From Bacillota bacterium (GTDB lineage: Bacteria > Bacillota > Limnochordia > DTU087): a stretch of DNA of 64,000 bases. The stretch covers positions 14,141 to 78,140 of the forward strand of contig JAAYHH010000011.1 of NCBI GenBank assembly GCA_012735435.1, in the 5' to 3' direction. The notes beneath the pieces were generated by a model that was given only the letters and a program-made list of their open reading frames with translations, was not told where the DNA came from and ran no database searches. Of the stretch, positions 7,330 through 33,779 are shown piece after piece; the stretch's first letter is position 1; each line of letters opens with the position of its first letter. Both the position numbers and the translations under genes were made by a program.

Positions 7330-7980
7330 CTATAGCTGTCTTCCGATCTTAGCCTTAATCCGGCAAAGGGCATTATCAATAGACTTGGTATGGGTACCCA
7401 GCTCTTCGGCCATCTCTTTGTAAGATAACCCGTTGATGTAAAGCTTGAAAACTCTGTACTCAAAATCACTGAGGACTTCTTTTATGTAGCGCTGAGTATG
7501 CTGAAGCCTTTCCCGATCGATAACCAGCGCTTCTGGATCATCTACCCTGTTGTTGGAGAGCACCTCCATCAGGGTTCGGTCTCCCTCGGCATCATAAATG
7601 GGTTTGTGTAAAGATGTGTACGAGTTAAGGGGGATATGCTTCTGCCTGGTAGTGCCCTTGATGGCACTGATAATATTGCGGGTGATGCACAGCTTGGCGA
7701 AGGACCAGAAAGATGAGGAACCTGGAGTAAAATCACGGATTGCCTTGTACAGCCCGATCATCCCTTCTTGCAAGAGATCATCATCCTCAGCTCCCTGCAA
7801 GAAGTAGGGTCGGGTCCATATGTAGACTAACTTCTGATACTTGTACAACAAGTAATCAACTGCATCTTGACGACCAGCCTGGGCTTGCTTCACGATGTCT
7901 TCATCAGGCAAATCCCGGAAGGCCTTGAACCCATCGAAATGATAGTTGAGCGGCAATGCACTACCCATGGACATGACCAC
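7330..7980 (-). CDS. sigH: RNA polymerase sigma factor SigH (Spo0H)-like
   Basis: 216 aa; strong similarity to B. subtilis SigH (YLLYKYQ, LQEGMIGLYKAIRDF, TRQKHIPLNSYTSL.KPIYD..DRTL, SIDNALCRIKAKI). Confidence 0.8.
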   Translation of the reverse strand: MVMSMGSALPLNYHFDGFKAFRDLPDEDIVKQAQAGRQDAVDYLLYKYQKLVYIWTRPYFLQGAEDDDLLQEGMIGLYKAIRDFTPGSSSFWSFAKLCITRNIISAIKGTTRQKHIPLNSYTSLHKPIYDAEGDRTLMEVLSNNRVDDPEALVIDRERLQHTQRYIKEVLSDFEYRVFKLYINGLSYKEMAEELGTHTKSIDNALCRIKAKIGRQL

Positions 7981-8185
7981 TCCTTTGGCTCAAGAAAAAG
8001 AATGCTATGTTATCAATATCTACCAAATTGTACAATTCAACACAAGTACGGCAAATCCTTCAATCCAGCCGGAAAACGAAATATGCCCTTCCCGTCTCGT
8101 TCATCAGAACGCAGAACGGTAAGGGCATGTCACGGACAACTACTCTCTTTGGAGTAACACATATAACTCCAGCTTCGCCTCCTTT

Positions 8186-10072: not shown

Positions 10073-11239
10073 TTAAGAAAAGCGAATGCCGGCATCTTTA
10101 AGCCGCTTCAATGCTGCTTCAATCCTTTCCTTCTCGACACAAAGGGATATGCGGATATACCCCTCGCCATACTCACCATACCCATTTCCTGGTGTGACTA
10201 CAACTCCCGTCTTTTCCAAAAGCTCGGCGGCAAACTGTGTGGAGGTATATCCCTTGGGAACAGGGGCCCATACGTATATGGTACCCTTAGGTTTTTCGAT
10301 CTTCCAGCCTAGTTCCTGCAGACCCTCCACCATGAGATCCCGCCGCTCCCTGTAGACCTCTCTCATAACGTCTACAGAATCCTGGGGTCCACGTAAGGCC
10401 TCTATACCTGCCAGTTGGACAGCAGAAAAAACTCCAGAGTCGATATTGCCCTTAACCCTGGCTAAAGCTTCAATGACTTCTGCATTTCCGGCGGCCCAGC
10501 CCAGCCGCCAGCCGGTCATATTGTAGGTCTTGGAAAGGGAATGGAATTCGATGCCGACTTCCTTGGCACCATCGATCTCAAGAAAACTTAAGGGACGATA
10601 GCCGTCGAAGGCTACTTCGCTGTAAGCGGCATCATGACAGACGATGATATCATACTCCCGAGCGAAGGCAACGACATCTTCGTAAAACTCCCTGGGGGCC
10701 ACTGCTCCAGTGGGATTGTTGGGGTAATTGAGAAACATCAGCTTCGCCTGTTTGGCTATATCGGCGGGAATGGCATCAAGGTCCGGCAGGAATCCGTTCC
10801 GTTCCAAAAGGGGCATCTTATAGCTCCTGCCCCCGGCAAACAAGGTACCGGTGTTGTAAGCGGGATAACCGGGATCGGGAACTAAGTTAATATCCCCGGG
10901 ATCCACATAGCACAGGGAAATATGGGCTAGTCCCTCTTTGGAACCAATTAAGGCCACAATCTCAGAAACCGGGTCAAGTTCTACTCCCCGCCCTTCCCGA
11001 TACCAATCGGCTACCGCCTCCCGAAAAGCAAGCATCCCCTCATAGGTGGGATAGCGGTGGGTCCATGGTTCTTCTACCGCCGACTGCAGTCTCTTGATAA
11101 TGTGGGAAGGAGTTGGCCGATCGGGATCGCCTATTCCAAAGTTGATAATATCAACCCCGGCGGCCTTAGCCTTGGCAATCTTTTTGTCTATCTCAGCGAA
11201 CAAATACGGTGGCAGTTGTTGAATACGTTTAGCAGTTTG
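10073..11239 (-). CDS. dapL: LL-diaminopimelate aminotransferase (DapL-type class I aminotransferase)
   Basis: motifs [34 protein letters not shown]; probable start at [15 protein letters not shown]; the ORF extends to 11329. Confidence 0.75.
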
Positions 11240-11344
11240 CATCGAACCCGCGGCCAAGCCAAACGCCAGCTGTTCCTTCACCTTTAGTGAGGAAGGCAGG
11301 ATCGGCCGCCTCCACGCCTCCTTTATCAATTCAGTTGTATACTT

Positions 11345-11701
11345 TCAGGGCATAGAAAAAGCTCCCATAAGCAGATTCAATACTTGCCGGAAACATCCTG
11401 CAACTACAGGCCCAAATTCACCGCCTTGAGCTCCAGCTGTCCCATCTTCACTAACTGCTTCCAGGCTGCTATCGTGGTAAACATCGGGAGCACAGTCGGG
11501 CGTCTCTTGATCATGGTCGCTGCCGGCTGCAAGGGATCGGGAATCACAGATGGGACAGCAGCCCTCCTCAAGGCTTCGCCGCCTGGCATCCAAAAGGCCG
11601 TAGGCCATCCCTGCCTGAAACCCCTGGGCAAGTCCCAGCCGGCGGCCCGCCGCAAAACCAGCCAGTATACTCACAAGAATGATCAGTACTATCTTAATCA
11701 C
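11345..11701 (-). CDS. small Cys-rich membrane protein
   Basis: 118 aa; N-terminal TM helix, motifs GCCPICDS, PDCAPD, AGCF; start overlaps the upstream gene by 8 nt. Confidence 0.45.
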   Translation of the reverse strand: MIKIVLIILVSILAGFAAGRRLGLAQGFQAGMAYGLLDARRRSLEEGCCPICDSRSLAAGSDHDQETPDCAPDVYHDSSLEAVSEDGTAGAQGGEFGPVVAGCFRQVLNLLMGAFSMP

Positions 11702-23491: not shown

Positions 23492-24351
23492 CTACCTCTT
23501 TCTCGTTCATGAACACTGCCAGCCAAAGAATCTCCAGTCCTTTTCAACCTAAGGGCTGCCCCCTGAAGACAGACGGATGTCAGTACCAGCAGCAGAGCAG
23601 TCCCAAAATGGTGTGGACTGGCCACTTCACCAGATTCAACTACCGACCGATACAAGTGGTACGGCAATGTGGATAGGGATTGGCCGTGAAAGCTCGGCCA
23701 AGCAGCTGCGATCATGATCACAGGCGCTGTTTCGCCGCCTACCCGGGCCATTCCCCCCAAAGCTTCCGCGGCTAAGAAGCGTCCGGCACAGGGCATCAGT
23801 GCCCCCCAGGTGGTCTGCCAACGAGAGCCGCCGAGGGCCAGACTGTCTCTGCGAAAAGAAACCGGTACCTCCTTTAGGGCCGAGTATGTCACAGAGACCA
23901 ACTGCGGCAGCAGCCATACCGCCGATGTCAATAGAAAGATCAGTGTCTGTTTCCCTTCTCCGAAGTATGGTGCAAGGGCACCCCAGCCAAATAAACCGTA
24001 TACTATGGGGGGCATCTCTGCAAGGCCTCCGACAGCGGCGAGCATCCACTGCTTCAGACGATTTTCCCTCGCGTATTCGCTCAAGTACACTCCAGCCCCT
24101 ATTGCGAGGGGCAATGCTAAGAGGGCTCCTCCAAACAACAGGGATAAAGTGCGGAACCAGAGGGGCAGCAGTATATTATCGGTCTCAGCAAAAGCACCGT
24201 CTCTGAAAAACCTGACTAGCGGACCGAACCCCCTGAAGACTAGGTATCCTACATAAAAGATCAAAATCCCTGCTGCTAACCAAGAGATCAGTATAATTGA
24301 TGAGTAAATGATTCCACCAGTATATGTCTGGGGGCTGTGCCTGTCTCTCAT
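23482..24351 (-). CDS. pstA: phosphate ABC transporter permease PstA
   Basis: 289-aa polytopic permease directly upstream of pstB, 10-nt overlap. Confidence 0.8.
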   Translation of the reverse strand: MRDRHSPQTYTGGIIYSSIILISWLAAGILIFYVGYLVFRGFGPLVRFFRDGAFAETDNILLPLWFRTLSLLFGGALLALPLAIGAGVYLSEYARENRLKQWMLAAVGGLAEMPPIVYGLFGWGALAPYFGEGKQTLIFLLTSAVWLLPQLVSVTYSALKEVPVSFRRDSLALGGSRWQTTWGALMPCAGRFLAAEALGGMARVGGETAPVIMIAAAWPSFHGQSLSTLPYHLYRSVVESGEVASPHHFGTALLLVLTSVCLQGAALRLKRTGDSLAGSVHERERGRWY

Positions 24352-25235
24352 TCTTGTACCCTCCAGTGACTCTGCATGAAGCGGCGGCCTAGGCTGGAAA
24401 TAGCCAGGGATAAGATCATAATCAACATGGCCATGGGAAAGAGTTCGGAATGGTGCCAGCCCAGCTCTGCTCCCATTACAATCGCCGTCGGCACGGTAAA
24501 CAGCCTGTGGTCCTGACTTGCCGTTAAGCTGCTTCTGGCAGCTGCTTGCCAGAGCATCAGGACGATAGCAGTATCCCCCATGGTTCTGCCCAAACCGAAA
24601 AATCCCGCAGCAGCAATACTGGATCTAGCCGCGGGATAGACAGTATAAACTATAGTCTGCCAACGGCTTGCACCTAGTGCGTAGGATGAAGCCCTTAGAG
24701 ATGGCGAAATTCGCCTGAAATGCTCGATCAAGAAGGATGCAAGAGAGGGATAAACCATCAGTGCCAGAAGAAGGGAAGCAGCTGGATATAGCCTTAGTGG
24801 GGATGTTCCTTGAGAAGACTCATAGTAACCGAGCCAAACCAGCCCGATAAATCCAATAACCACCGAAGGAACTGCGGATAACACTTTTATGGTAGTCCAG
24901 AACATCTTCGCCGGTTTGGAAGGTGCCAATTCGGTTATATATAAAGCAGAAAGAAGGCCGACGGGTAAGGCGACTACCACCGCTCCTGCGGCAATTACTA
25001 GAGAATTAACTACTGCCGTCAAAATCAAATCCAAATCCAGGTCCACCAAGAGTACGGAGCGAACGGCTCCTATGACTACAAAAATCACCACAGCAGCCAA
25101 CACCACGAGGGTTGCTGCGGTTGCTAGCTTAAGAATCGTCTCTGGGCCAAAACGAAATGTCTGACCAGTACTTGCCAGTTTCTCCTTGGTGCTTTCAATA
25201 CCCATGCTGACTCTATTCATACTGTCAGGGCACAA
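24348..25235 (-). CDS. pstC: phosphate ABC transporter permease PstC
   Basis: 295-aa polytopic permease, 4-nt overlap with pstA; the true start may be downstream of the ORF-track Met. Confidence 0.8.
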   Translation of the reverse strand: MCPDSMNRVSMGIESTKEKLASTGQTFRFGPETILKLATAATLVVLAAVVIFVVIGAVRSVLLVDLDLDLILTAVVNSLVIAAGAVVVALPVGLLSALYITELAPSKPAKMFWTTIKVLSAVPSVVIGFIGLVWLGYYESSQGTSPLRLYPAASLLLALMVYPSLASFLIEHFRRISPSLRASSYALGASRWQTIVYTVYPAARSSIAAAGFFGLGRTMGDTAIVLMLWQAAARSSLTASQDHRLFTVPTAIVMGAELGWHHSELFPMAMLIMILSLAISSLGRRFMQSHWRVQE

Positions 25236-25404
25236 ACCCAGGGGAGGTTACTGGGTCACGCCATGCCTCCTCTCGGGCCTACAGCAGCCGGGTTGGTAAG
25301 TAATCCAGCTGATATTAGCGGTCTATTGGAACCTGGCATTAGCTGCATAACTCTCAACAGTTAAAGGTGGCCCCCTACCTCACCAAAGGCCACTTACCTA
25401 CACT

Positions 25405-25441
25405 ATTTAATTTTACCATGTTGGTGTTACCTGATTGTTAC
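25405..25441 (-). promoter_or_regulatory. candidate PhoP-type Pho box (direct repeats GTAACA-N5-GTAACA) plus TAAAAT -10 element upstream of pstC
   Basis: minus-strand sequence TGTAACAATCAGGTAACACC-N8-TAAAAT, resembling TT(A/T/C)ACA direct repeats at 11-bp periodicity. Confidence 0.3.
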
Positions 25442-25588
25442 AAGCGTGCTAACTTCTCGTAACGGGGCAGTCGCCACTTCCATTCCATTTGGTTCAGGTT
25501 CCGTAAAATACATTCGCTTCTACCCCATCAAGGACCTGCCAAGATTTCCCCGAAGCAGGACTGGAAAATGGTTAACGGGCAGGCAATA

Positions 25589-25617
25589 TTGACAATTGTG
25601 GCCAGTCATGGTATATT
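25589..25617 (+). promoter_or_regulatory. near-consensus sigma-A promoter (TTGACA-17 bp-TATATT)
   Basis: TTGACA at 25589-25594, 17-nt spacer, TATATT at 25612-25617; would drive the small plus-strand ORF. Confidence 0.55.
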
Positions 25618-25716
25618 AAAGATGAAAATAACGTGTATACAGGATACATGATGTGTAAGCGTTTGTAGGCGTTCGGATAGATGTCGGCGGGTAGATACTT
25701 TGAAAGGAGTGATCCC

Positions 25717-25887
25717 TTGATAATCTCTGTCGGCAACCGGGAGATTACTATCAAGGTCCGCGAACAGTCAAGACCGGAAATCGCGGAGAGAGTGTACCGT
25801 CAGCTCCTTAGGGAGAGAGAAGTTCAGAAGGATCGGGATGCTGCCTACGCCCGTCTGTTGTTTGGTCAGGGGATTCACTTAAACTAG
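25717..25887 (+). CDS. small hypothetical protein (~56 aa), possible swapped-hairpin/AbrB-MazE-like fold
   Basis: RBS AAAGGAG 6 nt upstream of TTG at 25717 (alternative ATG at 25681 has a poor RBS); flanked by the strong promoter and a downstream terminator; ISVGNREITIKV is weakly MazE/AbrB-like. Confidence 0.4.
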   Translation: MIISVGNREITIKVREQSRPEIAERVYRQLLREREVQKDRDAAYARLLFGQGIHLN

Positions 25888-25910
25888 ACCACTGCAAGCG
25901 TAACAGTATG

Positions 25911-25972
25911 AAAAAGCAAACTGCGATGCTATACCACTCAAGGTACAAGGCATCGCAGTTTGTTTATTCTTT
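25911..25972. terminator. bidirectional rho-independent terminator
   Basis: 12-bp stem GCAAACTGCGATGC/GCATCGCAGTTTG with T-runs on both sides; ends the small plus-strand gene and the minus-strand SLH gene. Confidence 0.6.
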
Positions 25973-26017
25973 ATGCAGCAAAAAGATTTCCAAGCTAGGT
26001 ATATGCACTCAGGCTAT

Positions 26018-27574
26018 TTAGTTTACAAACCCGATAATCAACGCCAGTACCGCTGCAATGGTTGCGATATTGGCGGCACTCTTAAGACTCTGATTCTGCT
26101 TCTCAGCATGGGTTCGGTAGCTGTCAAACTCATCCCGCAGCTCCTGCAGCTGCCGCTCCAGCCGCTGTTCCCGCATTAGGGCTGCATTGATCTGGGCAGA
26201 TGATTGTGTAATCACCCGCTCATCAACGGCTGCCAGGGCAGACTCTGTGGCGCTTACCCGCTCCTGCAGTATAGAAACAGCTGCCTGCAGCTCTTCAACG
26301 TAATCCTGCAGATCTGCAAGATCCTTGCTGTCAGCTGCTGCACCCTGCTGCAAGATATTGGTCCTCTTGTCTAAGGCAGCGATCTTCTGAGAAATATTTA
26401 CAAGGTCTGTCTGGACTGCCTCCAAACTCCTAACCAGGTCTTGACGCAGACCGCTGACATCCTTCATCAATTGCCCATCCGCGGCAGCCATAGCTTCTCC
26501 CTGTTTCAAGACTTGATCCTGGAGCGCCTGCACATCTTCGGCAAGTGCAGCCGTCTCCTCAGAGCGGGCAAGTCTTTCCTCCGCTACAGCCTGCTGCAGC
26601 TGTCCAATTTCAGCGGTTAGCTGATCATCCCTCTGGGCGGATTCTTCTTGCCAGCTGCTCAGCTCTTGCTCCATTTGGACAAGCTGCTGGACAACCTCAG
26701 ACAGGCCCTTTTCCACCCGACTGATCTCTTCTGCCAGTTCAGCATCGGCCTCTTGCATGGCGTTCTGCAGTAAGCTTAAAGCCGCATCCCGTTCCGCAAA
26801 GCTGCTCTGGACCTTTACACCCAAAGCCTCCTCCAGCGCTACTAGTGAGTCAGTGTGGAGTGCCAGCATCCGGGTGTGCTCATCTAACCTTGCTTCATTG
26901 GCTTCAACAGCGGCCTCGGTATCGGCCAGGGCTGCTGCCTGTTTGACAAGCTCATCCTCAAGGGCTTGAAGCTTACGGCCCTGGTCAGCAGCCTGCTGCC
27001 TAAGGTCTGCATCAGCAGCTTCGAGGCGCCGGGTGGTATCGGCAACCTGCTGCTGGAGGGCGGCAATTTCCGCCAATATGGCTGCTGCCTGCTCCTGTAT
27101 AGAGGTGCGGATAGCTGCATCTTCCTGCTCCATTGTGTCGATGACCTTAGTCACAGTCTCATCCATTACCTGAACACGACGCTGGGTTTCGGTAACGGAA
27201 GCTGACAGCTCTTCCCTTTGATTATACCACCGTACAAGTTCATCCCTAAACTCGGTAGAAAGTGTCCGGAGCAGTTCCAAATCCTCCTGAGTTACACCCA
27301 GCTGCCCTTTTTCGATGTCCACTAGGAGCCGGCCAACTACTGAAGCCAGCGTATACCTATCGACAGGTCTCTGACCTTGAAAAGTTCCATCGGTATAGAG
27401 AGCAAGATAACCTTCCTGGACTAACTTTTGAACACCCTCATAGGCCCAATGGTCTGCAGGCACATCGCTGATCTGCTGTGCAGTCTGCTGGGCAAAAACA
27501 AGATTCCCCTGACCTACCAACAGCAGCAAAAACAGTAGTACAACTCCTATTCTTCGAATTGTCCTCGACTCCAT
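26018..27574 (-). CDS. SLH-domain protein with long coiled-coil and C-terminal membrane anchor
   Basis: signal peptide; SLH motif DVPADHWAYEGVQKLVQEGYLALYTDGTFQGQRPVDRYTLASVVGRLL; ~380 aa of Q/A/E/L-rich heptad-like sequence; C-terminal hydrophobic helix NIATIAAVLALIIGFVN. Confidence 0.7.
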   Translation of the reverse strand: MESRTIRRIGVVLLFLLLLVGQGNLVFAQQTAQQISDVPADHWAYEGVQKLVQEGYLALYTDGTFQGQRPVDRYTLASVVGRLLVDIEKGQLGVTQEDLELLRTLSTEFRDELVRWYNQREELSASVTETQRRVQVMDETVTKVIDTMEQEDAAIRTSIQEQAAAILAEIAALQQQVADTTRRLEAADADLRQQAADQGRKLQALEDELVKQAAALADTEAAVEANEARLDEHTRMLALHTDSLVALEEALGVKVQSSFAERDAALSLLQNAMQEADAELAEEISRVEKGLSEVVQQLVQMEQELSSWQEESAQRDDQLTAEIGQLQQAVAEERLARSEETAALAEDVQALQDQVLKQGEAMAAADGQLMKDVSGLRQDLVRSLEAVQTDLVNISQKIAALDKRTNILQQGAAADSKDLADLQDYVEELQAAVSILQERVSATESALAAVDERVITQSSAQINAALMREQRLERQLQELRDEFDSYRTHAEKQNQSLKSAANIATIAAVLALIIGFVN

Positions 27575-27630
27575 TTCCTCCCGCCCCCTGTCAATCTTCT
27601 TTGCTCCTCAGTGTTTTCCCAGCACCTTTG

Positions 27631-29664
27631 TTACCTGGCAACAGTAACCGGCAGTTCCATGGGTCCCAATTCGATCACCTGTCCACTGGTGGTGGTCAGC
27701 TTGGTACCCAGCAGCTGGATGACACCGGTGCCTTCAGCGCCTGCCACAAACCGGATTGAACACAGGTTACCTGTCAATCGACTGGGTCCCAGCTGTGAAA
27801 GCCCCCGGAGTTTCACCTGGATAATGCCCTGTGACGGCTGCAGCTCCACCTCCATCGGAGCGGCATCTCCCACGGCAGCCGATAGAGGTGCCAGGACCTC
27901 GCCCCGCTCTACTCCAAGGCGGCCGCCGGCTACCCGCATCAGGTCCACTGGAAACTTAAGCAAGAACTCTGCCTCTTCGATGTTCTTCAGATTATAGCCC
28001 CTTATGGCCGTCTTCATAGGCCCTCCCACAACAGCGGGGCCTGTCCCCTCTGCGATGAGTCTGATCATTTGGGGAAGCTGCGGTATGCTGATAAATTCAT
28101 TTACAATCAGCGGTTCGGTGGCACCGGACTCCACCCTCACCGAATAGGGCAGGCTGTCACTGGCCACATCGGTTGGGGTTAAGAACCACTGAACCACAAT
28201 GGACTCCTGTGGACCGAGATCTCCGCAGAGTTTAGTCCGCCCCTCACCAGGGGCCAGCTGAAGCCCCAAGGGTGCCTGCCATTGGGCATGAACCCACGGT
28301 GCATTCATTTCACCGACATTGGTGATGGTGGCCCTAACGGCAAAGGGTACCGGCTGCAGACTTCCATCTTCAACTAAGAGACGGGGCGGTGCGGAGATTT
28401 TCACCTGCAGTTCGGCAGGTTTGGCGATCCTAACTTGCCGCCGCACCCGGTTGGGCTCACTGTTGGCAGCTTCAACCTTTACTTCGTAGCTGATTTCACC
28501 TCTAATATGGTCAGCCACTTCCACTTGCCAGGCCAGCTGTACTGACTCTCCCACTTCCAAATTACCCAGGCTGCCGCCGGCCTCCTGTCCAGGAACCAGG
28601 GACAAGCCGCTGGGCAGTTCAATGGCTATCCTAACATCCCTAGCCTCACCTTCGCCGCTGTTCTCCAGATAGGCGACAATCGGGAACCTTGTCGGTCCGT
28701 CGGGGGCGTGGGAGACTACAGCAGGTGATGTGACTCCCAAGGAAAGCTTTCCGGGAGCAATGGTTATACCGCCAAGCCCGTAGTAAGTTACCCAAGTAAC
28801 GCTCTCGCCGGGACCGAGGGTGACCGGATCCCAAAACATAGCAATCGCCGAATCCAGCTCAAATTCACCCTTCCGGAGGAAAATGCGGCCAGGGTCAAAA
28901 TCAAAATCCCAGATGCTCTCTGCCAAAGCTCCCCAGTTGCTGAAGTACACCCGATCAGGCGGGGTTACCCCTGAACCCCGCAGGGTTCCCTGGGACATAA
29001 CCTGGGGATCGGCCAGGGAGTCGAATGCCTGCCAAAACTCCGGTATAGCTCCTCCGGTAAACAATGTATCGGTAGTAACAGCCTGCTGCTCTACCCTAAA
29101 GGGGGCACCGTCATTGGCGCCCAACATAGTATCCAGCATAAGCCGCATGGCTACGCTGTGGGAAACAGAATCCTCATTGGTCAAAGTATAGGCAATCCGG
29201 GCTGTATCTTGCAGACCAGTGGTGCTGCTTCGGGTAAAGCTGAGGATCTGCTCCGCTTTCACCGGCCCTAGTTTATATACAGTGCTGATGGCATTTCCCT
29301 GGATAACTTCGGGTCCTGAGATCAGCTCCCCGAATGGTCCTTGTCTTCCAGCGGAGGTCTGTGTCGGACCGCCAAATACATAGTTGCGACCGTCTATTTG
29401 GATCGTGGTGTAAGAAGTCCAAGGATCGGCCATGCCGTAAACTAAGGGTTTGTTTTCATCACCGATCCGGTCAGGATCTCCGCCGGTGGTGTTGATGGAG
29501 AACCGGCCGGTGTTTTCTTCGCCTCCGTTGACAATGATGGAAATGTATTCATTGGCGACAATGATATTGCTGCCGACGTTACCTTCGACCATAGCCCGGG
29601 CCTTCTCTACTTCACAGCTAATCAACATGACCGCAGCCAGGGCAATTGCCAACCAGCGCCGCAT
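27631..29664 (-). CDS. large secreted protein with beta-sandwich (CARDB/DUF11-like) repeats and cohesin-like C-terminal domain
   Basis: 677 aa; signal peptide MRRWLAIALAAVMLISC; repeated G.S..L.W.VEV-type beta-sandwich segments; no catalytic motif recognised. Confidence 0.5.
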   Translation of the reverse strand: MRRWLAIALAAVMLISCEVEKARAMVEGNVGSNIIVANEYISIIVNGGEENTGRFSINTTGGDPDRIGDENKPLVYGMADPWTSYTTIQIDGRNYVFGGPTQTSAGRQGPFGELISGPEVIQGNAISTVYKLGPVKAEQILSFTRSSTTGLQDTARIAYTLTNEDSVSHSVAMRLMLDTMLGANDGAPFRVEQQAVTTDTLFTGGAIPEFWQAFDSLADPQVMSQGTLRGSGVTPPDRVYFSNWGALAESIWDFDFDPGRIFLRKGEFELDSAIAMFWDPVTLGPGESVTWVTYYGLGGITIAPGKLSLGVTSPAVVSHAPDGPTRFPIVAYLENSGEGEARDVRIAIELPSGLSLVPGQEAGGSLGNLEVGESVQLAWQVEVADHIRGEISYEVKVEAANSEPNRVRRQVRIAKPAELQVKISAPPRLLVEDGSLQPVPFAVRATITNVGEMNAPWVHAQWQAPLGLQLAPGEGRTKLCGDLGPQESIVVQWFLTPTDVASDSLPYSVRVESGATEPLIVNEFISIPQLPQMIRLIAEGTGPAVVGGPMKTAIRGYNLKNIEEAEFLLKFPVDLMRVAGGRLGVERGEVLAPLSAAVGDAAPMEVELQPSQGIIQVKLRGLSQLGPSRLTGNLCSIRFVAGAEGTGVIQLLGTKLTTTSGQVIELGPMELPVTVAR

Positions 29665-29720
29665 TAATCACCAGCCCCCTAACTGTAGTATCGTTTCATT
29701 GGCGATCTATCGAGGAGCCA

Positions 29721-30647
29721 CTACTCGTTCCGGACATACCTGACACCATCGTAAAGAATCGATACCCTAAACTCCGGCGGACCGCTGAAGGAGACAGTTA
29801 CCGTCAGAATATAATCCTCCAGCAGCGGCTCCATTCGCCATCCGTTCTGGATAGTTAAGCTTGCTACCTGGTCTAGGCTTGCTGCCCCGGAAGACTGGAT
29901 GATGTCAATCCGGGTTGCTCTAGTAGACCCCTTGGGGACATAGGCATCCAGCTTCACAGTGCCTGCCAAGCCCTCGTTAATTGCATTCTTGGGGTACTGA
30001 ATCCGGCCACCGCCTGCTACCAGAGTGCTTGCCGCCGGCAGTGGAGGCAGTGGCGGTGGCGAAGGTGGTGTCGGTTCTGCCTCTTCATCGCTTTCTGTCT
30101 CGGATGAAGAACCGCCTGGTTCGCCGGCAGGGGCAGAATCGCCTCCAGCCATGACAGCATCTTGACCTTGCTCGCTGGTCAGGATTTGCTCCCCATTGCT
30201 GTCAGGCTGCGATAGAGCCTCTTCACTGGCTGCCGGATCCGGCTCAGGTTCAGGCTCAGGCACTACCCTGGTGTCAGGAGTCTTAACTTCCTCTTGGGGA
30301 GCCGGGGTCGTCTCCTGCGGCTTTGGTGCTGGCTCCGGTTCAGTCTTGGTTACCTCGGCCTTGGCAGTTTCAACCGGTTCCGGTTCTTCCTTCGGTGGCG
30401 TGGGTTCCTGACGACGGGGAGTTTGCTGCTGCGGCTGCTGCCTGACCGCTTGGGTTCTAGGCGCTGGCTGCTGGACCTCTACGGGTACAACAGAAATAAT
30501 ACCGCCGCCAGGACCTGCAAAAAGGCCGGGTCCAACCGCAAATTCCCAGCGGGGAAAGACAAAGAACAGCATTGCGTGAAGGATAAGCGAAATCAAGACA
30601 AAGGCTCCAAAGGAGCGGTCTGACTCATCTCCTGTATACATTGCCAC
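29721..30647 (-). CDS. TonB-like energy transducer (N-terminal TM, Pro/Glu-rich linker, TonB C-terminal domain)
   Basis: TM FGAFVLISLILHAMLFFVF; PEPEPEPDP/PKPQ linker; C-terminus GGRIQYPKNAINEGLAGTVKLDAYV...IDIIQSSGAASLDQVASLTIQNGWRMEP matches the TonB-C fold. Confidence 0.75.
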   Translation of the reverse strand: MAMYTGDESDRSFGAFVLISLILHAMLFFVFPRWEFAVGPGLFAGPGGGIISVVPVEVQQPAPRTQAVRQQPQQQTPRRQEPTPPKEEPEPVETAKAEVTKTEPEPAPKPQETTPAPQEEVKTPDTRVVPEPEPEPDPAASEEALSQPDSNGEQILTSEQGQDAVMAGGDSAPAGEPGGSSSETESDEEAEPTPPSPPPLPPLPAASTLVAGGGRIQYPKNAINEGLAGTVKLDAYVPKGSTRATRIDIIQSSGAASLDQVASLTIQNGWRMEPLLEDYILTVTVSFSGPPEFRVSILYDGVRYVRNE

Positions 30648-30691
30648 ACCACCTCCCCTCGGATTTGGCTGACGCCAAAGGGTGTACCATG

Positions 30692-31105
30692 CTACCTGCC
30701 CCGGGGTTCAACTGCAAGGCCAAAGCGATATCCTCCCAGCTGCCGAACAACATCCATTACTTGAACTATATAATCATAGCGAGCCTCCCGGTCAGCTTTA
30801 ATGACGACAAAAAGGTCCGGCCTTTTCTCCAATGCTTTGCCGACCTCTGACCTTAGAGTATTACTACTGACCTGACGCTCACCCAAGAACATCCGTCCAT
30901 CTTTAGCTACAGAAATGGTGATCTGGCTGCTGGCTTGTCTGTCCCAACTTGCCGCCTTGGGCAGTTCAAGATTCAATCCTGCTGGATGGGTCTTAAAGGT
31001 CGTAGCCAGCATGAAGAACACCAAAACAGAAAAAATAATATCAACCAGCGGCACTATTTGAATCGTTGGCTTTTTGTTGCGGACAGAGCGGCGGGCTATC
31101 ATCAC
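30692..31105 (-). CDS. exbD: biopolymer transport protein ExbD/TolR
   Basis: 137 aa; IQIVPLVDIIFSVLVFFM N-terminal TM typical of ExbD/TolR; 4-nt overlap with exbB. Confidence 0.8.
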   Translation of the reverse strand: MMIARRSVRNKKPTIQIVPLVDIIFSVLVFFMLATTFKTHPAGLNLELPKAASWDRQASSQITISVAKDGRMFLGERQVSSNTLRSEVGKALEKRPDLFVVIKADREARYDYIVQVMDVVRQLGGYRFGLAVEPRGR

Positions 31106-31743
31106 ACATCACCCCTCGCCTCAAAGATGGCCAACAGCTCCGAAGAGCGTTTGTTGATATCAACCACTAGGCGGTCGATTAATCCCGAAAGGTAAGAATA
31201 AATCAGAGTACCCGGAATGGCGATTACTAAGCCGGTTGCAGTTGTAATTAGGGCTTCTGCAATTCCTGTGCTTAAGGCAAGGGTATCATCTAAGCCGCCA
31301 ACCGCTGAAATCACTTGAAAACTATTGATAATACCTGTTACTGTACCTAAGAGACCAAGCAACGGTGCAGCGGTGATGATTGCATCGAGAAGTCCCAGCC
31401 GGCGTTCCATACGGAAGACCTCTTCATAGGCCACTTCTTCCAAGCGCTCTCGGATAAACTGCTTGTCCTTATCATAATGGGCTATCCCCGCCGCCAGTAC
31501 AGCCGCAACCGGGCCTCTGGTTTTCTTTGCTATCTGGATAGCTTCCAGGATTTTGCCTTGCTGAAGAGCCAGTTTAATGTCATCCATCAAATCCTCTGTA
31601 TCTACTCGACAGCGAAGCAAGTAGACCAGCCTTTCGAGAGAGACAGCTACCATCAATACAGAGCAAAGCAGCAACGGGATCATTACCGGGCCGCCCCGAA
31701 TGATCAAATCCAGCATTCTATATACCTCCACTCCGTCCCACAT
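31102..31743 (-). CDS. exbB: MotA/TolQ/ExbB proton-channel protein
   Basis: 213 aa; three TM helices; LLGLLGTVTGIINSFQVI and TTATGLVIAIPGTLIY ExbB/TolQ signatures. Confidence 0.8.
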   Translation of the reverse strand: MWDGVEVYRMLDLIIRGGPVMIPLLLCSVLMVAVSLERLVYLLRCRVDTEDLMDDIKLALQQGKILEAIQIAKKTRGPVAAVLAAGIAHYDKDKQFIRERLEEVAYEEVFRMERRLGLLDAIITAAPLLGLLGTVTGIINSFQVISAVGGLDDTLALSTGIAEALITTATGLVIAIPGTLIYSYLSGLIDRLVVDINKRSSELLAIFEARGDV

Positions 31744-31930
31744 TCATTGGGTAAGACTATTCGACAATCAGGTACCATATCCTTCCTGGCTATTCCCTTG
31801 AGAAACTCCCACGAGAATTTCCTCTAAAGGCCTACGTGCTTCCCTGATTTTCCCCTCTTGGCATTTTCGACAAGGCAAGAGACAACTCCTGCCGTCAAAA
31901 GTCCATCTGAAACAAAGAAAGACGTGGATA

Positions 31931-31960
31931 TGAATAGGGAAATGTCCCCAGGATATGCTA
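31931..31960 (+). promoter_or_regulatory. forespore sigma-G/sigma-F-type promoter (TGAATA-17 nt-TATGCTA) upstream of the SASP gene
   Basis: -35 TGAATA at 31931-31936, -10 ATATGCTA at 31953-31960, resembling the sigG consensus TGAATA-N17/18-CATACTA. Confidence 0.5.
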
Positions 31961-31997
31961 CCATCAAGATGCTTTTCGACGGGAGATGGGATCTATA

Positions 31998-32213
31998 ATG
32001 GATAGGGAATTAGAAGCAGTTCGGGATCGAGCCATGGACCAGCTCAAGCATGATTTAATAAAAGAGATGGGCTTGTGGGACCTAGTGCAGACCGAAGGCT
32101 GGGGAGCACTGCCGGCCAAGGACTGCGGCCGTATCGGTGGGAAGATGGCAACGAGGCTCAGCCCCAACATCCTCCGGAAAATAGCTGACATGAGCCAAAC
32201 ACAGGGCAAGTAG
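31998..32213 (+). CDS. alpha/beta-type small acid-soluble spore protein
   Basis: 71 aa; SASP pattern LDQLKHDLIKEMG ... GRIGGKMATRLSPNILRKIAD (K.EIA.E.G / GG.M..RLV); RBS GGGAGATGGG. Confidence 0.75.
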   Translation: MDRELEAVRDRAMDQLKHDLIKEMGLWDLVQTEGWGALPAKDCGRIGGKMATRLSPNILRKIADMSQTQGK

Positions 32214-32240
32214 GAAGCGGGCTGTTGATGGCAACAAAAA

Positions 32241-32266
32241 AGGCGGTGACCCTGTCGTCTACCGCC
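32241..32266 (-). terminator. rho-independent terminator downstream of the GNAT gene
   Basis: hairpin GGCGGTGACCCTGTCGTCTACCGCC followed on the minus strand by UUUUUU. Confidence 0.5.
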
Positions 32267-32278
32267 CTGGGGATCTTC

Positions 32279-32845
32279 TCAGCCTGCCAAGAGCCTGTAC
32301 TGGGGATGAATTTCATAAAATTCGTCTCTTAGGATGCGCATCAAATAGATTTCCCTCAGCTCCTCGGAACTCCGTGTTCGAATGAGCTTACCCTCTTTCT
32401 TAAATCCGGCCTTCTCATAACAGCGAATCGCAGGGCGATTGGTGCTGGCGACACGCAAGTATACGCGGGAAAGCTTCATTTCACCAAAGGCATAACACAG
32501 GAGGGCTGTAACGCTCTCCAATCCATAACCTTTTCCCCGATAATCACCTTCGCCGATGCGGATTCGAAGCTCTGCATCGCCGCTGCGCCAGGCAATGTGG
32601 TCTAACTCAATATCACCGATGGGAACTCCATTTCGGGTGGTAATTACCAGCCGTCGGATATGGCGGTTGCTGCGCTGTTTTTCATACCACTCCTGACAAT
32701 CCGCCAGGGTTTCAGGATAACCATCATCCTCCATATAATGTCCTACTTCTGGGTCCTTGGTCCATTTAACTATCTCGGGAAAATCCGACGGCATAATCGG
32801 CCGGAGGATGATCCTCTCCCCTTCAATTTTCATGTCTGCTGCCAC
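32279..32845 (-). CDS. GNAT family N-acetyltransferase (RimL-like)
   Basis: 188 aa; GNAT core around IGDIELDH...RIRIGEGDYRGKGYGLESV. Confidence 0.75.
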   Translation of the reverse strand: MAADMKIEGERIILRPIMPSDFPEIVKWTKDPEVGHYMEDDGYPETLADCQEWYEKQRSNRHIRRLVITTRNGVPIGDIELDHIAWRSGDAELRIRIGEGDYRGKGYGLESVTALLCYAFGEMKLSRVYLRVASTNRPAIRCYEKAGFKKEGKLIRTRSSEELREIYLMRILRDEFYEIHPQYRLLAG

Positions 32846-33014
32846 CTCTTTGCCTACAGCATCTGCTGCGTTGTTTAAGCCGCGAAATCTGGTTCGTCTA
32901 CAGTTACTAGCGGGCGATTCCTAAGTTAAGGCTTCTACTTAGATTTCTACTTAATCAGAGCCTAACCTTTAGGCAATAGCAGCCAGTCATGCCACGTGAC
33001 AGCAAAGGTGACAA

Positions 33015-33779
33015 CTATTCCATCAGGGACTCCCGCAGTAGGCCGGTAATCCGTTTCTCCAGTCTTGATACCTGCCCTTGGGAAATCCCCAGCATTTCCG
33101 CCACTTCAGTTTGGGTTCGCTCTTGTATAAAACGCAGGACCACAATGGCCCGATCCCTGGGGGACAGCTCCTCACAAGCCTGCTTCAGGGCGTAGTTTTC
33201 TATCCACGTGTCCGATTCCGGCTCTACTCCCAGCTTGTCTTCCAGATGAAGGGCGCTTTCACTGTCTTCGTGAATGACTTCGTGGATGGATAGTATAGGA
33301 GCCACTGCCTCCAAGGCCTCAACTACTTCCTCCCGCTCCATGCCCAGTAAGTCACCGATTTCCCCTGGGGTTGGCGCTCTGCCCAAGCGCTGCTCCAAAC
33401 TATCCCTTGCCCTGATGGCTGCCGCGGCTTTCTCCCGCAAGGTACGGCCAAGCTTAATAGCCCCTTCCTCCCGGAGAAAGCGGCGGATTTCCCCCATGAT
33501 CACCGGCACCGCATAGGTGGAGAATTGAACACCGTAGGAAAGATCAAAGTTATCAATTGCTTTGACAAGTCCGATGCAGGCTACCTGGAACAAATCATCA
33601 AGTTCTCCTCTGCCGCTGAAGCGCTGAGCGATGGACATGGCCAGCCGCAGGTTGGCCTCAATCAGCTGCTCCCTTGCTTCAGCATTGCCAGCCTGTGCTT
33701 CAGCCAGCAGGCTCTGGACTTCCTCTGAGGTTAAGCTCAAAGCTGGAGGCAGTTGGATCTTGCCTGAAGGCTCTTGCAT
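33015..33779 (-). CDS. sigF: sporulation sigma factor SigF
   Basis: 254 aa; near-colinear with B. subtilis SigF (DLFQVACIGLVKAIDNFDLSYGVQFSTYAVPVIMGEIRRFLRE, SQGQVSRLEKRI); directly follows spoIIAB. Confidence 0.9.
   Translation of the reverse strand: MQEPSGKIQLPPALSLTSEEVQSLLAEAQAGNAEAREQLIEANLRLAMSIAQRFSGRGELDDLFQVACIGLVKAIDNFDLSYGVQFSTYAVPVIMGEIRRFLREEGAIKLGRTLREKAAAAIRARDSLEQRLGRAPTPGEIGDLLGMEREEVVEALEAVAPILSIHEVIHEDSESALHLEDKLGVEPESDTWIENYALKQACEELSPRDRAIVVLRFIQERTQTEVAEMLGISQGQVSRLEKRITGLLRESLME

Follow-up and report, generated by a model that had tools for sequence, protein, structure and literature searches.

A conserved ExbB-ExbD-TonB operon encoding a cohesin-fold protein and an SLH/coiled-coil anchor: a possible trans-envelope module of outer membrane-bearing Terrabacteria

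Introduction

Tol-Pal and Ton are the described motor systems closest to the locus reported here. Tol-Pal (TolQ-TolR-TolA-TolB-Pal-CpoB) has been detected only in Gracilicutes, and among double-membraned (diderm) Firmicutes, Ton systems (tonB with a receptor) were found in Negativicutes only (PMC12204202). No Ton system was recorded in Halanaerobiales or Limnochordia by that survey, whose supplements hold no entries for either lineage; Armatimonadota and other Terrabacteria have Ton systems, and tonB is usually not linked to its motor genes (PMC12204202). In double-membraned Terrabacteria (diderm Firmicutes, Margulisiibacteriota, Armatimonadota, and others), the outer membrane (OM) is tethered by SLH proteins, reportedly without Tol-Pal. 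The architecture of another tether, Omp-alpha, is said to have been described by Engel et al. in 1992. Omp-alpha of Thermotoga spans the periplasm (PMC10160955). The subject of this study is a five-gene operon on the minus strand (31743..26018) of a 64-kb stretch of DNA from a Bacillota bacterium (contig JAAYHH010000011.1), and the whole stretch is called the window. The operon encodes ExbB, ExbD, a TonB-like protein, an exported protein of 677 aa (P677) and an anchor protein with an SLH domain and a coiled coil (gene 5).

Results

Gene order and conservation

The five genes form one conserved unit. They are consecutive open reading frames (ORFs) of the same direction in the order exbB, exbD, tonB-like, P677 and gene 5. 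The first two overlap by 4 nt and the later gaps are 44, 56, and 56 nt. The original prediction of five co-oriented, tightly spaced genes was borne out, with every ORF found at its minus-strand position and the domains confirmed. For comparison with the proteins encoded in the window, 75 loci (71 of them genome loci) were fetched and their ORFs were called. About 60 of the 71 retain the order ExbB-ExbD-TonB-P677-gene 5. The carriers are Limnochordia metagenome-assembled genomes (MAGs), Ca. Darwinibacter, UBA3914, Hydrogenispora and Capillibacterium MAGs, the cultured Fuchsiella alkaliacetigena, and Halobacteroidaceae MAGs. The order persists down to a P677 identity of 38% and across lineages whose flanking genes are not the same. 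The module usually follows dacF-spoIIAA-AB-sigF-GNAT in Limnochordia-type loci and lies between a surA-like gene and ndk/sleB in Fuchsiella alkaliacetigena (Halanaerobiales).

Two further phyla were reached by profile search and context look-ups. The module of Ca. Margulisiibacteriota consists of ExbB (189–219 aa), ExbD, a TonB_C protein (169–219 aa), a P677 homologue (635–646 aa) and an SLH/coiled-coil/helix protein (161–180 aa). It adjoins holB and rpsU, and lptF/G lie alongside in two of three distinct loci. The order is the same in Armatimonadota. There, the TonB_C score is 82.5 bits, and gene 5 has the signal peptide, the coiled coil and the terminal helix but no SLH domain. Outside Firmicutes, tonB and P677 overlap or abut (–17 to +3 nt) in all six gene-called distinct loci, which suggests that they are translationally coupled. 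The neighbourhood check proposed with the original prediction did not refute it, as the P677 and SLH genes are kept beside exbBD-tonB in about 60 loci and four lineages.

A different picture was obtained from MAGs labelled as monoderm Clostridia (Alkaliphilus, Ruminococcus, Ruminiclostridium, and others). They hold the N-domain of P677 only, within proteins of 850–1190 aa, and CBM3 or Fn3 is present in the two such proteins examined. No motor was found near the N-domain in the monoderm Clostridia MAG loci of the sample. The N-domain opens a large protein in L072 (9139..13327), where it directly follows an agrB gene with a CBM2-thermolysin gene near, and in L068 (9794..12349).

Transcription unit

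A sigma-H-type promoter (AGGATAT-N11-GTCGAAT; 31759..31783, minus strand) was predicted 43 nt 5' of the exbB ATG. The consensus applied was RNAGGAWWW / RNNGAATWW, as quoted in PMC8510167. Against this pattern with an 11-nt spacer, the exbB promoter has a single mismatch at the final position and is otherwise exact. The strict pattern has three matches in 64 kb, with 0.36 expected, and one of the others is 5' of the sigH gene. Of 65 related loci, 47 have a relaxed pattern 5' of exbB (background 0.021); it is found in none of three Margulisiibacteriota loci and in one of three Armatimonadota-type loci. Transcription of the operon in sporeformers appears to be driven by a sigma-H-type promoter. 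A second, distal sigma-H-like element (AGGAGTT-N12-GTCGAAA; 31865..31890, minus strand) was found by aligning the upstream regions of 11 close relatives. It is kept in the window's own clade and is a weaker match with two mismatches. The distal element is ambiguous, for TGTCGAA is also the core of a Spo0A box. The conserved TGTCGAA was first taken as a Spo0A box; sigma-H is preferred because AGGAW is co-conserved at a fixed spacing of 11–12 nt, and the two readings are not mutually exclusive.

An intrinsic terminator composed of a hairpin and a U-run (25910..25969, minus strand) was predicted about 50 nt past the gene 5 stop codon. Its fold energy is –30.7 kcal/mol (z –6.7), and none of 200 shuffles folded equally well. 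A consensus terminator scan inside the cluster gave only weak sites of at most 8 stem pairs, at a count matching that of shuffles. With the promoter before exbB and the strong terminator only after gene 5, the five genes would behave as one unit. The claimed co-transcription therefore agrees with the predicted promoter, the weak internal sites and the one terminator. An Rfam scan of 24000–33500 gave no match.

Motor proteins

The defining residues of the ExbB/ExbD/TonB class are present in the motor proteins. The exbB/tolQ-like gene for the proton channel subunit (31102..31716, minus strand) encodes 204 aa. Its longest ORF runs from 31743, but 31716 is the more likely start, given a GGAGG ribosome-binding site before it and public gene calls of 204 aa. 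The product matches Pfam MotA_ExbB (PF01618) at 2e-32 with 112 bits against a gathering cut-off of 22.9. Against the NCBIfam equivalogs, it scores 94.6 bits for TolQ (6.8e-27; cut-off 221) and 80.6 bits for ExbB (1.4e-22; cut-off 206). Both cut-offs are unreached, and therefore assignment to either the TolQ or the ExbB subfamily is not possible. The exbD/tolR-like gene (30692..31105, minus strand) encodes 137 aa and matches Pfam ExbD (PF02472) at 3.1e-28 with 98.8 bits against a cut-off of 25.4. The translation has a protonatable Asp in the transmembrane (TM) segment (VPLVDIIF). TolR is its closest NCBIfam model, far under the equivalog cut-off, so that the subfamily is not assignable.

The TonB-family force transducer (29721..30647, minus strand) has 306–308 aa and probably starts at 30641, which gives 306 aa. 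As had been described from the sequence, it is composed of an N-terminal TM helix, a Pro/Glu-rich linker and a TonB C-terminal domain. TonB_C (PF03544) was matched at residues 216–294 with 36.8 bits against a gathering score of 24.6. The NCBIfam tonB_Cterm score of 23.9 bits is slightly under its cut-off of 27.1, and the match to solved TonB C-domains is weak. The TM helix holds the SxxxH motor-coupling motif (SLILH in the window) and the C-domain carries YP and SSG..LD signatures; SLILH and YP are kept across most loci. Pro amounts to 13.6% overall, and a P/E/T/Q-rich stretch covers about residues 55–205. Nearly all gene 3 products of Limnochordia-type and Halanaerobiales loci have SxxxH, as do those of Armatimonadota-type L081, L083, and L084. 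The motif was not found in the first 60 residues of the gene 3 products of the Hydrogenispora-like group.

Comparison with Tol-Pal and Ton systems

The gene-order logic resembles that of Tol-Pal. In both, a 5:2-type motor pair driven by the proton-motive force (PMF) is followed by a transducer with a TM helix, a linker and a globular domain, a periplasmic beta-rich protein, and a membrane-anchored protein that binds the wall and has a coiled-coil part. The scores of the module's ExbB and ExbD are also slightly higher with TolQ/TolR models than with ExbB/ExbD models. However, the TolQ, TolR, and TolA scores are all far under the cut-offs, and the transducer C-domain is TonB_C rather than TolA domain III. 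The operon lacks a TolB beta-propeller, an OmpA-like Pal lipoprotein and the TPR protein CpoB; gene 5 is without an OmpA domain and has a type I signal peptide instead of a lipoprotein one. The module is at most an analogue of Tol-Pal, and the periplasmic parts are non-homologous.

The module shares all three inner-membrane parts with a canonical Ton system, including the SxxxH helix, the TM Asp of ExbD and a TonB_C domain with YP. However, no receptor is linked to it. Two non-receptor genes are invariably linked instead, and its tonB is fixed beside the motor, which is infrequent elsewhere (PMC12204202). The original prediction that no TonB-dependent receptor gene is adjacent held, in that none was found among the annotated ORFs of at least 580 aa in the window. 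These ORFs all belong to housekeeping or sporulation genes, and so do most of the others that reach 150 aa.

P677

P677 (27631..29664, minus strand) consists of a signal peptide, a mutarotase-like supersandwich (about residues 31–300), two CARDB/NPCBM_assoc-type Ig-like domains (about 307–527) and a cohesin-fold domain (about 533–677). The AlphaFold2 (AF2) model is all-beta with a pLDDT of 87, and the C-terminal domain has the jelly-roll fold of cohesin (PF00963). The N-domain has no Pfam or NCBIfam match. The family comprises 1270 clusters at 50% identity (E<=1e-30). Galactose mutarotase (aldose 1-epimerase) of L. lactis uses a catalytic set of His, His, Asp, and Glu. P677 lacks this set, and it is not a mutarotase because the family alignment has no His in its conserved columns. 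Asp, Asn, Arg, Gln, and Trp are invariant at many positions, which suggests that a sugar or a metal is bound. An N-terminal strand (…NIIVANEYISIIVN…) was considered as a TonB/TolA box; this was speculation, and the strand is predicted to lie inside the folded domain (pLDDT 86–89).

Type I signal peptides are found in the homologues. Only in the P677 of the window does the signal peptide (29595..29664, residues 1–24) end with a lipobox-like LISC; the closest relatives (P0001 and P0004) have LIGC or LIAC, and distant homologues have plain AxA sites. Lipidation, if any, would be clade-specific. Given a diderm host, P677 most likely stays in the periplasm. The beta-sandwich and cohesin-like character first proposed for it was thus retained as an all-beta protein with a cohesin-fold C-domain, and the label 'secreted' was given up. 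In contrast to the cohesins of cellulosomal scaffoldins and anchoring proteins, P677 has no dockerin partner, enzyme-bearing scaffoldin or SLH domain on the same chain in the window, its host would be diderm, and its context is a motor operon. The exact 677-aa protein is present on two ENA metagenome contigs. In UBA3914 (L069, 9968..12144), the P677 homologue is split into two ORFs of 316 and 402 aa, through either a frameshift, a pseudogene or an assembly error.

Gene 5

Gene 5 (26018..27574, minus strand) encodes an Omp-alpha-like anchor of 518 aa with a type I signal peptide, a single SLH domain (Pfam 1e-07), a coiled coil and a C-terminal hydrophobic helix. The coiled coil is segmented and about 410 residues long, and 411 residues contain no Pro. 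A hydrophobic periodicity of 3.5–3.6 is present in local windows only; over the whole protein, the heptad Fourier signal does not reach significance (z –0.1). The AF2 helices cover residues 96–251, 259–409, and 416–516, and the model is helical through residue 516 of 518. Residues 30–239 match the SLH domain and stalk of D. radiodurans SlpA (7zgx, 2e-10) and V. parvula OmpM (8bz2, 8bys, and 8bym, about 1e-09), and NCBIfam por_somb matches at the N-terminus. The label 'surface-layer-associated' in the original prediction therefore has to be replaced: the SLH region matches the periplasmic stalk of OmpM/SlpA OM tethers and not an S-layer protein. The SLH domain and the start of the stalk are homologous to those of these tethers in diderm Terrabacteria. 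However, gene 5 has one hydrophobic helix in place of the C-terminal porin barrel.

In architecture, the nearest match is Omp-alpha of Thermotoga maritima, which likewise has a signal peptide, a single N-terminal SLH domain, a long coiled-coil rod and a C-terminal hydrophobic segment without a beta-barrel (PMC10160955). The likeness drawn here is one of architecture. In contrast to Omp-alpha, gene 5 is linked to a TonB motor instead of omp-beta; its products vary in length between 138 and 1939 aa, and those of Armatimonadota have no SLH domain. The architecture is kept in 60 distinct homologues, where the terminal hydrophobic segment has about 17–26 residues (mean 18.8) and the mean tail is 0.22 aa. 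The same homologues carry on average 3.3 basic residues in the 12 residues before the terminal helix and 0.2 after it. In a stop-transfer anchor of a Sec-exported protein, positive charges would be expected C-terminal to the helix, where they face the cytoplasm. Since the basic residues of gene 5 sit on the coiled-coil side instead, the charge pattern mildly favours an Omp-alpha-like anchor in the OM, or one associated with an outer-membrane protein, over an inner-membrane anchor.

In one Limnochordia clade (L003 12133..17952, L048 9861..14303, L025 12186..15305, and L028 12017..14683), the gene 5 homologue is a coiled coil of 888–1939 aa with the SLH head and the terminal helix retained. The TonB-like partner in these loci is short (255–276 aa), and that of L003, the one tested, has no TonB_C Pfam match. 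No obvious relationship between the lengths of genes 3 and 5 was seen in a by-eye comparison. A variant module was observed in an AT-rich (35% GC) Armatimonadota-type subfamily lineage (L081, 6202..10530; also L082). Its gene 3 keeps the SxxxH helix without a TonB_C Pfam match, and its gene 5 product, a coiled coil of 285 aa, has the terminal helix but lacks an SLH domain. A TetR gene lies upstream, with cellulase and aldose-epimerase genes just past it.

Host and envelope type

The window clearly comes from a sporulating Firmicute, as it contains dacF-spoIIAA-spoIIAB-sigF, a SASP gene, spoIIM, sigH, and PolC. The named relatives of P677 are Limnochordia MAGs and 'Bacillota bacterium' digester MAGs. 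The carrier UBA3914 is GTDB DTU010 of the class Limnochordia (PMC10608942). Limnochordia, Halanaerobiales, and Negativicutes are Firmicute lineages with lipopolysaccharide (LPS) OMs (bioRxiv 10.1101/2021.05.31.446380; PMC11456536). Since the relatives belong to an LPS-OM lineage, a TonB motor and an OmpM-like SLH stalk are to be expected there. The original prediction had implied a paradox in a TonB system of a wall-only (monoderm) sporeformer. This paradox largely disappears with named relatives in Limnochordia and Halanaerobiales, which have LPS OMs according to the literature. For the same reason, the 677-aa protein described as secreted would most likely be periplasmic.

Neighbouring genes

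The sigH (spo0H) gene (7330..7980, minus strand; NF006148 260 bits, cut-off 208) is preceded by a strict sigma-H motif (8035..8059, minus strand), which suggests that sigH is autoregulated in this organism. A relaxed sigma-H-like motif (AGGATGT-N11-ATTGAAT; 11375..11399, minus strand) lies about 46 nt 5' of a class I/II aminotransferase gene (10073..11329), which may be another member of the sigma-H regulon. An alpha/beta-type SASP gene (31986..32213, plus strand) is divergent from exbB, and the shared intergenic region of 270 nt holds both sigma-H-like elements. On the other side, a gap of 780 nt (25235..26018) runs from the terminator to pstC. Its sole ORF is on the plus strand, has 56–68 aa and shows no Pfam match; the gap has no Rfam match.

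A LOG/'Lysine_decarbox' (PF03641) gene lies directly 5' of exbB in Margulisiibacteriota (L077 5234..6271, L079 5213..6238, and L080 5361..6380). The PF03641 gene of Armatimonadota L083 (3209..3982) is on the opposite strand, about 1.2 kb 5' of exbB, and a TetR gene separates the two. An ABC ATPase gene directly 5' of exbB in some Limnochordia loci was considered as LptB and turned out to be GlnQ-like instead.

Discussion

The literature searched contained no account of this operon and no paper naming both Limnochorda and TonB, and the module is absent from the list of the most relevant systematic study. The components are of known kinds; their combination and phyletic pattern appear to be undescribed. 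The reading tentatively preferred, at a little under an even chance, is a dedicated PMF-driven trans-envelope module of OM-bearing Terrabacteria, here in a sporulating Firmicute related to Limnochordia. From family knowledge, proton flow through the ExbB-ExbD stator in the inner membrane would move the TonB-like protein, whose Pro-rich linker would let the C-terminal domain reach across the periplasm. Synteny and folds suggest that the dedicated partners of TonB are the products of P677 and gene 5, and not, or not only, TonB-dependent receptors. P677 may act as an adaptor in the periplasm that binds sugar through the supersandwich at one end and a protein through the cohesin-type domain at the other. 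Gene 5 is probably a trimeric coiled-coil rod with its SLH head on the wall (peptidoglycan or its polymer) and its terminal helix in a membrane, most likely the outer one, as in Thermotoga Omp-alpha. P677 would bind gene 5 or the wall polymer. The most likely function would be energy-dependent control of OM-wall tethering, for example in growth, division, or the stationary-phase/sporulation transition, which would make the module a functional analogue of Tol-Pal and not a homologue. Given the conservation, it is reasonable to read the operon as first proposed, as an envelope-spanning machine that is driven by the PMF and includes a coiled-coil tether and an exported partner.

Several points weigh against this reading. 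The diderm nature of the source genome is inferred from relatives, and the 64-kb window has no gene for BamA, Lpt, or OmpM. The absence of a receptor covers the same window, which leaves room for receptors elsewhere in the genome. The partnership of TonB with P677 and gene 5 is drawn from synteny. A C-terminal hydrophobic helix on a Sec-exported protein goes to the inner membrane by default, and OM anchoring of gene 5 is a soft call from the Omp-alpha precedent and the charge distribution. The spread of gene 5 from 138 to 1939 aa is hard to square with a simple periplasmic spacer of fixed length. Finally, wall binding by gene 5 is not universal, as the Armatimonadota proteins have no SLH domain.

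A more elaborate version, which is doubtful in its full extent, would make the module the Terrabacterial counterpart of Tol-Pal. A TonB paralogue would pull the sugar-binding/cohesin adaptor to load, unload, or reposition an Omp-alpha-like OM-wall tether. The module would date from early diderm Terrabacteria, would have been lost with the OM in monoderm Firmicutes and would be under sigma-H control in sporeformers.

An ordinary Ton system, with receptors encoded elsewhere and with P677 and gene 5 as unrelated envelope proteins sharing the transcript, is unlikely but has to be weighed first among the alternatives. The TonB-like C-domain is a bona fide TonB_C with the YP motif, Ton systems have been reported from Armatimonadota and other Terrabacteria (PMC12204202), and receptors could sit outside the window. 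However, P677 and gene 5 follow tonB in four lineages, with changing flanks, at identities of 35–48% and often with overlapping stop and start codons, and no receptor was found in the window. In addition, tonB is usually unlinked to its motor, and no Ton system was detected in Halanaerobiales or Limnochordia (PMC12204202). P677 and gene 5 are unlikely to be passengers of a generic Ton system because their linkage is conserved whereas tonB is usually unlinked from exbBD.

Less probable still is a remodeller of the sporulating or stationary-phase envelope, switched on by sigma-H to alter the attachment of OM and wall for asymmetric septation or engulfment. The sigma-H-type promoter, present in 47 of 65 loci of spore-forming lineages and in 0 of 3 Margulisiibacteriota and 1 of 3 Armatimonadota-type loci, would fit such a role. 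The same motif stands before the sigH gene, the Limnochordia-type module directly follows dacF-spoIIA, and that of Fuchsiella adjoins a sleB-like hydrolase gene. However, the promoter is a prediction, and many non-sporulation genes are also driven by sigma-H (PMC7438776). The module is also present in phyla not known to sporulate (Margulisiibacteriota and Armatimonadota), and therefore sporulation cannot be its core function.

A device for glycan capture, uptake, or display has only a slight probability. P677 would bind a polysaccharide, either external or periplasmic, its cohesin would recruit dockerin proteins, the SLH protein would hold P677 at the wall and TonB would power import. The mutarotase/glycoside hydrolase N-domain-like fold and the cohesin fold of P677 are compatible with this, as are the fusion of the N-domain to CBM3 (cellulose binding) and Fn3 in monoderm homologues, the cellulase and aldose-epimerase genes near the module of one AT-rich carrier and the NCBI homologue name 'cellulosome anchor protein'. 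However, no glycoside hydrolases, dockerins, sugar transporters, or receptors adjoin the module in the window or in most loci, where the contexts are housekeeping. P677 has no route across the OM, and the module, in contrast to polysaccharide-utilisation loci, forms one unit whose place in the chromosome is conserved. An anti-phage defence system (e.g. Zorya, with its MotAB-like motor) was rejected, as no PADLOC defence family was matched by the four non-coiled-coil proteins and gene 5 gave only weak coiled-coil noise.

The preferred reading, a dedicated trans-envelope module, bears on how the energy of the inner membrane is coupled to OM stability, constriction, or remodelling in Terrabacteria. 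The P677 family, with more than 1200 clusters at 50% identity, is currently mislabelled as 'cellulosome anchor protein'. The module is conserved across phyla and missing from monoderm relatives in the sample examined, and it thus bears on OM loss in Firmicutes and on non-receptor targets of TonB-like transducers. A TonB-type motor linked to an SLH/coiled-coil anchor and a sugar-binding adaptor would be a concrete, testable candidate for this energy coupling.

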